Source: Escherichia phage SH2026Stx1. From it: 61,564 nucleotides of DNA. Location: sequence record NC_049919.1. The stretch is one strand, 5' to 3'. The position numbers are program-made. This document shows, in pieces, positions 9,001 through 12,000 of this stretch; within the stretch, counting starts at the first letter, position 1, and each line of letters begins with the position of its first letter.

Positions 9001-12000
9001 CGACTATGCGGCCTCGGAAGGAAGTCCAATCATCTTATTCAAATCTTCTACCCGTAAAGCAGGAAGTGCTGTACTTGCTTTATCTGCTTCTTTTGGTAGC
9101 AATTCTTTGCTTTCAGGCCAAACTTCAATAAGTCGCTTAACTGTTGTGACTGAGTTCAAAGCAGCCCATACATTTGATTCGATATCCTTTTTCTTGGCTT
9201 CAAGTTTTTGTTGCAATGCGCAGATTTCATCAAACCTTTTTGTTATTTCGTGTTCTGCGTCAAACATGCATTTATCTTTGATCGGAGTAGGGAGCAATAT
9301 ATCTTTGCCGTTGCCGTCTTTCCCATATGAATGCCATCCAACCCTTCTGCCAGATACAGTCAGATAAATTGAAGTAGAACTAACATCGTATGAGTAAAAT
9401 GAACATCCCATCTTTCCAAGTTCTTCACTTATAGCTACCAACTTGGATGATAACTGATCCACTTCCTCAGTTTTCTTTTTACCGCCAAACGCAATAACTC
9501 TGGCGTCAAGTGCAAGCTGGTTCTTTAACTTTGTTACTTCTTCAAGTTCAGTGAACACCCCGGACTTAATTAAAGCGTTACGAGCGATTTCCTCTTTCAT
9601 TCTCGTAGTTAAGCGGATTGATGACATATTAATTCCTCTCAAATAAGTGGTTTGCTGCCTAATTTCATTTTCTGGCGACCAACACAAGTCACACCCATTT
9701 CACTGCGTGGCTTGCGGTAGTAAATACGGTTCTGTTTACGCTCGACCTCTTCTGACTTTGACTTCTTGCAGCGAAGGCTTCCGAGTGATATTGCTTTTTC
9801 AGAAAGGCTTAAACGCTTTCTCGGGGCTTCCTGAACAGCTTCCTCACTGTCTGTGCCGAAGATCGAATCGATGATGTTGCAGATGGAATCACGCTCGATA
9901 GCCAGCTTTCTGCGCCGCTCATGACGGCGAGTTTTGGCATTTCCTGCGAATGTTGATTTCCCGTACACGATTACCGTCATGATATTTTCCTCATGTGAAA
10001 TGGCTTTGGTGGTGATGCGCCAGATGCTGATCTTCTGGTTGCTGTCGTTGCTGCTGCAATTCACATCACCGCCAAACCCATCTCGTTTGGTATCTGTTTG
10101 CGCTTTGTCAGCGCCACATCGAAGTTAAAGAGCCTGCCAATCTGTTCCGTTTGGCTACCAGCGTCCTGCTGATGGCTTAAAGATAACCCAGGTTATAGGT
10201 GTGGTCAATAACTTAATTTATAATTCATGGTAAATAAGTTATAAATAATGGATAACAAAGGTATTTTATTTTTGTAAATGTTGAGGATGAAGGTGATGGG
10301 GCAGGGATCATAACTGCATGGTTTAGCGAGTTACATCAATAAATACAATTGGTTATGTTTTTTAGGTGGGGGGATCGTAAGGCAAAGAAAACCCGGCTCG
10401 GTGGCCGGGTTTGAGATTTAGTTATTTTCAGCAGCTCGGATAAGAGCGGAAGTGCTGACGAACATGTTCGAGCTCACCGAAACGTATGCGGCAGTAACTG
10501 CGCACATAAACCGGCTTGTCGTGTTCGTAGATGAAGTCATCGCGATTAACATCGTGAGCCATAGCTTTTCTCCTGTTTTTGTATACAGCCTGTTTACCCG
10601 AACAGGTTGTAGTTTGTTGGGAGAACCGCTATCCTTGGCTTGCGGTTGCCAAGGGTGTAGCGGTAGGTAATCCTCCATACACTTCGGAAATACTGGATAT
10701 ATTTCCGACCCAAAAAGCCCCGTTCCCTCGGGGCTTTATTCTTTTGTTCCGCCATCAATCATCGCAAAAGATTCCACAATCAGACTGATACGCTTGGCTT
10801 CATCTTTTGTCAGGTCGCGAGGCAGGTTGCCAATGGTGACGATAAGATCTCCGCGCAATGGAATCGGCAGTTCAAATGTTTTTACACCAACCTGTACGTC
10901 AGCTACCGCCTTCTTCTTAGGTGCCATCTTTTTACGCTCCTTTTTTTTATTTACATCACCAACTGACACATTAATCTCACCATTCTGGTAGGAGATAAAT
11001 TTATCAATAGCACTTTGCATCCGGCTTTTGTATGCCTGCAAAGATGATTCAGAGGGTTTGCTTTCTGCTGAGTCTGCGTACGAACTTGCTAAGTTGGCAA
11101 CGCTATAATCACGGATATCGGCATCGGTGAAATCCGACCCAAGAACAGTAAGAAGGCGCAGGGAAGAGTCACGGAGATTGCGGGCTGTAGCATCATTGAC
11201 GATACCAAGCTCAGGAAGCATCTGTAAGAAGTCCTGAAATGCTTTGATGGTGTAGCTTTTGGTTTGCATAAAAAAGCCTCATACAGTTGATGAGGCAATA
11301 CTAATTTGATCGTCAAAACAAATCAAGACCCAAGAAACGATCGTTGATTCCTTTCTTTGTGACAATACAGTCAAATCAAGTTTTACAAGGATTACTTTTC
11401 TTCGATTACATTAAAAGCCGCACTTCTGCGACCATCCATCACCCAAATGTCTCTTCACTCATCCGAAGAAGCAGCAATCCGGGTCAGCACGCACAAGCTC
11501 AAGCGCATCAGTCAGCGAAAGTTCAGTACTGTACTGATGCCATTTCATATCCTTCCGCATCCAATAGATTTTCCATCTATCCAGAGAACGTATGTACTTG
11601 ATTCTTGCTGATGGCAGGATGTTTGTTTCACCTGGGTTGCCCTGCCACACGGGGCGCTGTTCGCCGATATCTATCGTTTGGTCATTGATGCTATAAACAA
11701 TATCCAGTTCATTGCGGATATGTTCAGGCGGCCTTATGCTTTCAATGAATTGGTGAACTTCTTTTTTGACCGCTTGATATTCAAGGTCAGTGAACGCCAT
11801 CTATCCTCCTCACCCAAACGTTTCTTCAGGCCACTGGTTACCAGCTATGTGATGACCAGAATACTCTGCCAATAATCCTTACTGTTTCATGAAACTCATC
11901 TCTATCCATTACTTCATCAGGGTACTCTTCGCGATTTATTGATCTGATTATCACGGATGTAGGTGTGGCTATTAATGTCTTTACTCTTAGTAAATCAGAT

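Follow-up and report, generated by a model that had tools for sequence, protein, structure and literature searches.

Positions 10565-10706 of the Escherichia phage SH2026Stx1 sequence (record NC_049919.1; "the window" is the whole stretch of 61,564 nucleotides (nt) that was analysed) hold a real, conserved, and previously undescribed structured RNA. On balance, we think it probable that this RNA is a minus-strand mRNA leader that controls the translation of a 44-codon open reading frame (ORF). The leader contains one segment complementary to the Shine-Dalgarno (SD) sequence of that ORF, and this anti-SD has two conserved, mutually exclusive partners: the SD itself and an SD mimic further upstream. 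Read 5' to 3' on the minus strand, the parts follow one another as T, H1, the SD-mimic segment M, the variable hairpin H3, the anti-SD segment X, H4, and the SD and AUG of the ORF:

10714..10737, both strands: hairpin T, a bidirectional intrinsic terminator overlapping the stop codon of an upstream gene for a protein of 177 amino acids (aa), whose mRNA it would end at least in part; helix 91% paired across homologues.
10684..10708, minus strand: hairpin H1 (UCGGAAAUA-7 nt-UAUUUCCGA).
10655..10682, minus strand: segment M, with the SD mimic GGAGG at 10676..10672 (outer part) and ACCGCUA at 10664..10658 (inner part).
10633..10654, minus strand: variable hairpin H3 (CCUUGGC-8 nt-GCCAAGG); 78% paired.
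10620..10632, minus strand: segment X, in which UAGCGGU (10631..10625) pairs with inner M and UCUCC (10624..10620) is the anti-SD.
10584..10611, minus strand: hairpin H4, enclosed by the anti-SD:SD helix.
10560..10573, minus strand: SD GGAGA (10573..10569) and AUG (10562..10560) of the 44-codon ORF.
10562..10428, minus strand: the 44-codon ORF, MAHDVNRDDFIYEHDKPVYVRSYCRIRFGELEHVRQHFRSYPSC (PHROG 21154, 1.9e-31; RefSeq WP_000929756.1).

The comparison uses 14 leaders aligned with a covariance model (R1). This alignment, A7, consists of 13 distinct leaders and the near-identical L033 (homologous loci carry L numbers here); the covariance model was chosen because plain MAFFT (alignment A3) misplaced segment M. 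The leaders come from E. coli, Salmonella, Enterobacter, Citrobacter, Serratia, Symbiopectobacterium, and metagenomes. Scans of genome contigs and of metagenome contigs added one and three loci, respectively, and scanning viral contigs for the terminator plus GGAA gave two more family members among 107 stretches. L072 and L078 are further leaders that were found later and lie outside A7, and Yersinia phage YP3 has a partial copy. With L078 counted, 15 leaders keep the architecture.

Covariation across homologues, which the initial annotation had named as one way to check the structure, is present in the form of compensatory changes in the conserved helices of the 14 aligned leaders. With M paired to X, 90.4% of the 624 cells in A7 are standard pairs, against 77.0 ± 1.0% after column shuffling and 38-50% when the partners are slid by one to three columns, and both sides have changed in 27 of 46 pairs (14.3 ± 2.0 in the shuffles). 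H1 is 92.6% paired, with both sides changed in eight of its nine pairs, and it is conserved in YP3 too; at least five stem variants occur (GGAAAUA, GGAAGUUU, GGAAGAG, GGUAAGUA, and GGAAAUG), and the two arms change together over total spans of 19 to 23 bp and loops of 3 to 7 nt. H4 is 89.9% paired, with changes on both sides in 8 of 10 pairs. Segment M can either fold on itself as a hairpin, H2 (GUGUA...UACAC), or pair with X, and the outer and inner M:X helices are 95.6% and 94.5% paired. H3, which lies between the two arms, has been swapped for unrelated hairpins in L019, L017, L045, and L072, and its length runs from 21 to 49 nt. In L026 (Symbiopectobacterium, 3532-3750), 29 nt from the 5' coding part of the small ORF are repeated exactly within H3 (CATGATGTAAATCGCGACGATTTCATCTA).

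Central to our reading is the behavior of the anti-SD. It is UCUCC in SH2026Stx1 and UUACC, UGGCC, UAACU, UAGCC, or UAUCC elsewhere, and both of its possible partners follow these changes. Pairing reaches 95.7% for anti-SD:SD (slid controls, 39-54%), with covariation at two positions, and 95.6% for mimic:anti-SD (slid controls, 32-63%); the same two anti-SD positions vary (C/A/U/G at one, U/A/G at the other), and both SD and mimic track them. The anti-SD:SD result is no artefact of fitting, because the SD columns are unpaired in the covariance model. An alignment-free check, in which the partners of X were read from individually folded sequences, agrees. Duplex energies point the same way: cognate X:M duplexes average -13.9 kcal/mol and non-cognate ones -9.2, and for X with the SD-side segment S the averages are -10.6 and -6.7. 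RNAalifold, run on A7, independently recovers T, H1, inner M with the 5' part of X, anti-SD:SD, and H4. A full 12-bp X:S helix was considered as the conserved closed state and rejected, since only part of the homologues keep it (72.6% paired) and conservation is confined to the 5-bp anti-SD:SD core.

The kind of mismatch tolerated tells us which strand is at work. Taken as minus-strand RNA, H1 and M:X together contain 20 G·U cells and one A·C cell, and H1 alone contains nine and none; because of this imbalance, these are helices of the minus-strand RNA. Hairpin T behaves in the opposite way, with nine A·C cells on the minus strand that would be G·U on the plus strand. The U-tract after T, read directly, is kept on the plus strand in all homologues and degenerates on the minus strand to UUCAUAGG in many.

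Much of what the initial annotation had described by eye is borne out. Its 14-bp imperfect inverted repeat is where it had been placed, CCGCTATCCTTGGC (10626-10639) pairing with GCCAAGGGTGTAGCGG (10648-10663), and H3 is its tip; a repeat search splits it into CCTTGGC/GCCAAGG (10633-10639/10648-10654) and ACCGCTA/TAGCGGT (10625-10631/10658-10664). The second hairpin it had given, CCTGTTTACCCGAACAGG (10589-10606), corresponds to H4 (cctgtttacccgaacagg), and its arms lengthen to 11 nt (10584-10594/10601-10611). The palindrome GGAAATA-N7-TATTTCC is H1, with perfect 9-bp arms, TCGGAAATA and TATTTCCGA, at 10684-10692/10700-10708. The H1 and T loops are themselves reverse-complemented between close homologues (the window, L016, L018, L019, L037, and L072), that is, they show hairpin-loop inversions; the H1 loop is TATCCAG in SH2026Stx1 and CTGGAAA in L016, and the T loop CTGCAAA occurs as TTTGCAG. 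Both of the terminators said to bracket the stretch exist (10714-10737 and 10412-10389), although the left one is not adjacent to it, the 44-codon ORF lying between. The right-hand hairpin is scored as a terminator on the plus strand, where its tail is UUUAUUCUUUU, and the minus-strand tail is UUUUU.

The description of the stretch as highly structured holds as well, the minimum free energy lying far below that of dinucleotide shuffles on both strands: -55.0 kcal/mol against -34.0 ± 3.8 on the minus strand (z -5.56), and, with the terminator included, -76.8 against -47.4 ± 4.4 kcal/mol on the plus strand (z -6.70). On either strand, 0 of 200 shuffles were as stable as the observed fold. That the stretch is non-coding is confirmed, too: ORFs overlapping 10565-10706 lack conservation (L019 has ACG in place of the ATG at 10678, and length changes in the central hairpin are not multiples of three), and the conserved feature is covarying RNA structure. 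A leader peptide starting at ATG 10678 was rejected, since this codon lacks an SD and is ACG in L019.

How might the two pairings of X govern translation? During synthesis M would pair with X first, forming the long hairpin of the initial annotation and leaving the SD free; once released from M, the anti-SD would close on the SD and block initiation. Folding predictions for the nascent RNA, cut before the SD, contain the inner M:X helix in 13 of 13 homologues and an anti-SD core mostly paired upstream in 8 of 13, which suggests that the open form is made first and is able to close later. The predicted energy of the open minus the closed fold ranges from -9 to +9 kcal/mol across homologues, and in most of them the two folds are no more than a few kcal/mol apart. 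In SH2026Stx1 it is +8.9 kcal/mol in favor of the closed form, and the SD is predicted to be paired, which would limit access of the ribosome. In several homologues the open form is predicted to be more stable (by 9 kcal/mol in L035 and 3.9 in L043). With a closed ground state favored by about 9 kcal/mol, translation in SH2026Stx1 should occur only briefly after the RNA is made, or when conditions stabilize M:X.

The mRNA that carries this leader probably starts at the promoter of the 177-aa gene and reads through T. This promoter (minus strand; -35 TTGATT at 11326..11321, 17-nt spacer, -10 TAGTAT at 11303..11298) is conserved in homologues of the E. coli, Salmonella, Enterobacter, and Serratia types and weaker or absent in L045, L046, VT2-Sakai, and YP3, and it would drive transcription into the leader. 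Where the minus-strand U-tract is degenerate, T should indeed let transcription from the 177-aa gene pass into the leader. No minus-strand promoter conserved in position was found inside the stretch in the 13 leaders scanned; the one candidate, TACACC-N17-(T/A)AGGAT, is weak, recurs in some homologues, and has its -35 in or beside the length-variable H3, and it was rejected. GATC (Dam) sites flank the -35 of the 177-aa promoter and sit in its spacer (11342..11339 and 11311..11308), and most homologues, though not all, have sites close to these positions. A hairpin at 11296..11276 that had been called a terminator is probably the 5' hairpin of the 177-aa mRNA; its 3' arm contains the only SD-like sequence, GAGG, 7 nt before the 177-aa AUG, and the hairpin is kept despite sequence changes.

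The ORF downstream of the leader was missed in the initial annotation, and it is real and under clear purifying selection. Across 13 homologues, L072 being included in this analysis, 1048 differences fall in third codon positions, compared with 200 in first and 106 in second positions; 899 codon differences are synonymous and 271 non-synonymous. The 44-aa product, read from its sequence, is charged and hydrophilic and has no hydrophobic segment. Sequence searches of Pfam, NCBIfam, PADLOC, and PDB suggested no function for either the 44-aa or the 177-aa protein, RefSeq labels both "hypothetical," and among 1.84 billion representatives HMMER turned up no more than about 10 relatives of the 44-aa protein, all of them small standalone proteins. 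The N-terminal domain of the 177-aa protein resembles a recombinase core-binding (DNA-binding) domain.

Homology to the small protein also extends to an ORF of 40 codons in phage VT2-Sakai (L030), MSTYNLNDQFDREVHVNAYERIRHGNLEHVCEHYRSRPHR, which is unannotated (NC_000902.1, ~9590-9710; 3187-3309 of the locus). Its product is 57% identical to the 44-aa protein over 28 aa, it lies downstream of orf22 (VT2-Sap23), and its leader is strongly structured too (z -4.1, start region predicted to be paired). VT2-Sap22, annotated on the opposite strand, overlaps this ORF and is probably spurious.

There may be a further layer of control. A promoter-like element on the plus strand, together with the bidirectional terminator, could yield an RNA of ~100 nt antisense to the leader, a prediction to which we give somewhat less than an even chance:

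10607..10635, plus strand: putative antisense promoter, -35 TTGTAG at 10607-10612, 17-nt spacer, -10 TATCCT at 10630-10635.
~10642..~10745, plus strand: putative antisense RNA of ~100 nt, complementary to part of H3, M, H1, and T.

The pattern TTGnnn-N17-TAnnnT keeps its position and spacing in 13 of 13 scanned leaders, and no other promoter-like site does so. TTG and TAnnnT are invariant while the other positions vary, and TTGTAG and TATCCT can be read by eye in L072 as well. These invariant positions are the most important ones in sigma-70 promoters; one is an A bulged out of H4, and another is an A without a conserved pairing partner (pair 90:141). The leaders have few conserved unpaired positions, and those in the -10-like AGGAUA and in CAA are better explained by the plus-strand promoter. 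The predicted RNA would start inside H3 (~10642), and the U-rich tail of T reaches ~10745; in 13 of 13 homologues its predicted fold begins with a 5' tail, followed by a stem-loop that is complementary to M, by the complement of H1, and by a terminator ending in a U tail. By pairing with M and H1, such an RNA would take the mimic away from the anti-SD, leave the anti-SD to the SD, and so lock translation off.

Several points weigh against this reading of the stretch as a switch. Cognate X:S pairing is weak in L041, L043, L035, and L017; only the 5-bp core is robust, and a 5-bp match between SD and anti-SD is a modest target. Because the sequences fall into about six classes, independent events are fewer than cells, and A7 was fitted to one structure, though not to the anti-SD:SD helix. 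All of the fold energies are predictions, and since the balance of stability between the two states varies widely from one homologue to the next, no single shared trigger is evident. In SH2026Stx1 itself, T has a fair minus-strand U-tract (UUUUU). As for the antisense promoter, the match to consensus is weak (7/12) and under the threshold of the automated scan, and the conservation of the -10 TA is partly explained by pairing in the minus-strand RNA.

Other explanations deserve the same scrutiny. The functional product might be the plus-strand RNA of ~100 nt (~10642-10745) itself, acting in antisense or in trans and mirrored by the minus-strand structure. The positionally conserved promoter-like element and the U-rich terminator tail in all homologues speak for it, as do the slightly better plus-strand fold (z -6.7), the strand preference of T, and YP3, in which the conserved part (10664-10760) is almost the predicted RNA body and the 44-codon ORF is missing. 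On that strand, however, the 20 G·U cells of H1 and M:X become A·C mismatches, the covarying set includes the SD of the minus-strand ORF, which lies outside the predicted RNA, the promoter match is weak, and YP3 lacks the promoter region; we regard this explanation as improbable. The initial annotation had offered a small RNA as one possible role. As a free-standing gene and primary role this is not sustained, the G·U-informative helices being minus-strand ones that include the SD of the ORF, and what is left of it is the putative antisense transcript, which is compatible with a translational leader as an added layer and not as the sole function. It also seems unlikely that the hairpins are passive (a terminator, stabilizing stem-loops, or RNase III sites) and the SD is occluded constitutively, giving a fixed low level of expression. 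In SH2026Stx1 the SD is predicted to be fully paired from 20 to 45 C (probability of being unpaired, 0.00) and the closed form to be ~9 kcal/mol more stable, and the SD of the 177-aa gene is within a 5' hairpin as well, all of which would fit; simple occlusion, though, needs no mimic, and the mimic covaries with the anti-SD as tightly (95.6%) as the SD does, while the open form is favored in several homologues (L035, L043).

An SD that belongs to a small phage protein and has two alternative structures around it also brings to mind an RNA thermometer of the lambda cIII type, with temperature shifting the balance between open and closed SD, and a true cIII thermoregulator is present in the same prophage (Lambda_thermo in Rfam; a full-length match on the minus strand at 6287-6345, 88.5 bits). 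We think a thermometer very unlikely here: in five homologues the predicted accessibility of the SD hardly changes from 20 to 45 C and the sign of the trend differs, so no consistent response to temperature is predicted, and the Rfam cIII model (RF01804) has no match at the stretch. The last explanation is that the palindromes are DNA binding sites, for instance for the 177-aa protein, whose DNA-binding-like fold and immediate proximity would suit this, as would the perfect 9-bp arms that change in concert. The initial annotation had likewise raised a protein-binding site, and as a primary role this does not stand. The variable span and loop of H1 mean that half-site spacing is not fixed, G·U pairs occur at the stem base, the M:X arms are kept at distances of 21-49 nt across H3 and covary with an SD, and close homologues have the H1 and T loops in opposite orientations, which is expected of repeats that form hairpins. 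Given the variable spacing and the G·U pairs, a DNA operator is most improbable.

The leader does not travel alone. It moves as one module with the 177-aa gene and the 44-codon ORF, a linkage kept down to 47% identity of the 177-aa protein. Copies occupy the interval between cI and N in other lambdoid prophages (Serratia L037, metagenomic L043); follow a dinI-like gene at a prophage end beside pepN (Salmonella L031-34, Enterobacter L035/36) or beside a translesion-polymerase gene (Citrobacter L039); or adjoin a Dam methylase gene (L045). In L046/L047 (~2680-2830) the leader architecture is kept before an unrelated 47-aa ORF with a CxxC...CxC motif (MATTICPKCGNTCPVDFRPYIHDRHGNIIYPKKARVFPIPRCNCGRV). 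At the Yersinia-type loci L023-25, yet another small ORF follows the 177-aa homologue. Next to gin, phage YP3 retains not only the 177-aa gene but T, H1, and the first half of M as well (window 10664-10760, 87.8% identity), and it has no small ORF. VT2-Sakai and many Shiga toxin (Stx) phages have a 177-aa homologue at 39% identity, followed in VT2-Sakai by the small ORF described above.

The window itself is a lambdoid prophage of the Stx1 type that matches Stx1 phage JNE110649 at 100%, and near-identical DNA occurs in only 6 of 5426 complete E. coli genomes. Around the module, the following features were assigned:

12575..11838, minus strand: cI repressor (Peptidase_S24 plus helix-turn-helix).
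11800..11459, minus strand: DUF3024 protein, downstream of cI.
11433..11416, minus strand: hairpin terminator between the DUF3024 gene and the 177-aa ORF.
11269..10736, minus strand: 177-aa ORF (PHROG 2602), the upstream partner in the module.
10412..10389, minus strand: intrinsic terminator 3' of the 44-codon ORF (from a terminator scan), with oL/pL next.
10064..9639, minus strand: N gene (Pfam N_peptide, 1.6e-25).

Placement of the stretch between the immunity cassette and pL was correct, as the operator-like words at 10179-10262 and the position of N make clear; these oL-type words have 9-mers in common with the oR region at 12582-12624. The terminator at 10412..10389 is common to lambdoid immunity regions, its sequence being annotated as "terminator" in those of mEp234 and HK106. 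In mEp234 (L154, PV340539.1, 7001-8131) the slot from cI to this terminator is filled by hicA/hicB/hicC and ends at the same terminator sequence, which makes it an exchangeable cargo site. In lambda the slot between cI and pL holds rexAB, and it is known for exclusion and defence genes. Given occupants such as hicABC and rexAB, the module is likely accessory cargo.

A few observations concern the neighborhood. The DUF3024 protein matches the PADLOC candidate defence family PDC-S43 (7.2e-42), and its gene adjoins the 177-aa/44-aa module in L041 and L042 too. At 6551-8884, three consecutive minus-strand ORFs of 512, 115, and 133 aa look, judging from their sequences by eye, like an IS66-family insertion (presumably transposase, TnpB-like, and TnpA-like proteins). 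This insertion sits between cIII and a Nmad5-family gene (9004..9687) that precedes N, and the related genome L001 lacks it at that place. Rfam also gives a full-length match to the small RNA STnc100 at 25322-25535 on the plus strand (195 bits, E 5.5e-45).

Across the whole window, Rfam 15 at gathering thresholds returned only STnc100 and Lambda_thermo, neither in the stretch. A permissive search of 10200-11000 (E<=10) gave weak, terminator-driven matches only, of at most 21 bits and well under family thresholds, and no riboswitch family was among the matches to the stretch. No description of the element was found in the literature on lambdoid antisense RNAs and toxin-antitoxin (TA) loci of type I, on DUF3024, on EcOnc/Sp5, or on anti-SD and antisense control. 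A study of enterohemorrhagic E. coli by cross-linking and immunoprecipitation of Hfq (Hfq-CLIP) places its prophage small RNAs downstream of PR' rather than between cI and N.

What kind of system might this be? We can propose only tentatively, and think it on the doubtful side, that a three-part switch (SD, anti-SD, and a mimic removed by antisense RNA) gates the highly conserved 44-aa protein, which with the 177-aa protein would form a hitherto unrecognised mobile two-gene module, either type-I-TA-like or lysogeny/defence cargo. The control principle is well known; this RNA family is undescribed.

Type I TA loci of enterobacterial plasmids and prophages include hok/sok, tisB/istR, zorO/orzO, and ralR/ralA. 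Like them, the module has a small ORF (<60 codons) in a prophage cargo slot, a long and highly structured 5' leader with alternative or metastable folds that sequesters the SD, and a candidate cis-antisense RNA of ~100 nt, predicted here, with its promoter inside the leader. It differs in that its 44-aa product is hydrophilic and charged whereas TA toxins are usually hydrophobic membrane peptides, in that the 177-aa gene is always upstream and no overlapping mok-like frame exists, and in that we found no sequence or Rfam similarity. The lambda cIII element (RF01804) is alike in that two mutually exclusive folds of the mRNA set the translation of a small lambdoid-phage protein, the SD and AUG being occluded in one of them; however, it spans the start codon in 59 nt, with neither a separate SD mimic nor a variable hairpin, and no temperature dependence is predicted for the SH2026Stx1 leader.

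Plasmid antisense attenuators, among them the countertranscripts of pT181 and pIP501, the Inc RNA of IncB and IncI-alpha plasmids, and CopA/CopT of R1, follow a logic similar to that proposed here. In both, an antisense RNA binds an upstream segment and so frees a downstream inhibitory helix, and stem-loops with variable loops are the recognition elements. The plasmid systems control rep genes through transcription termination or pseudoknot formation, whereas the output of the SH2026Stx1 leader would be occlusion of the SD of a prophage small ORF, and its antisense RNA is only predicted. Kinetically controlled leaders are known from the maturation gene of phage MS2 and from the metastable folding of hok mRNA. 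The SH2026Stx1 leader is alike in that the nascent RNA is predicted to be SD-open (M:X) before it reaches a more stable SD-closed fold; this likeness is limited to variants of the window type, as other homologues have the open fold as the more stable one, and the kinetics are predicted only.

In the immunity region of enterobacterial prophages, including those of the Shiga-toxin type, these results define a conserved regulatory RNA and a genuine small gene, neither of which is represented in Rfam or in functional annotation. The three covarying segments are well suited to mutate-and-compensate analysis of translational control by competing helices. If the antisense RNA is real, this would be a type-I-TA-like locus with a non-membrane small protein, and it would add a class to the cargo carried between cI and pL.

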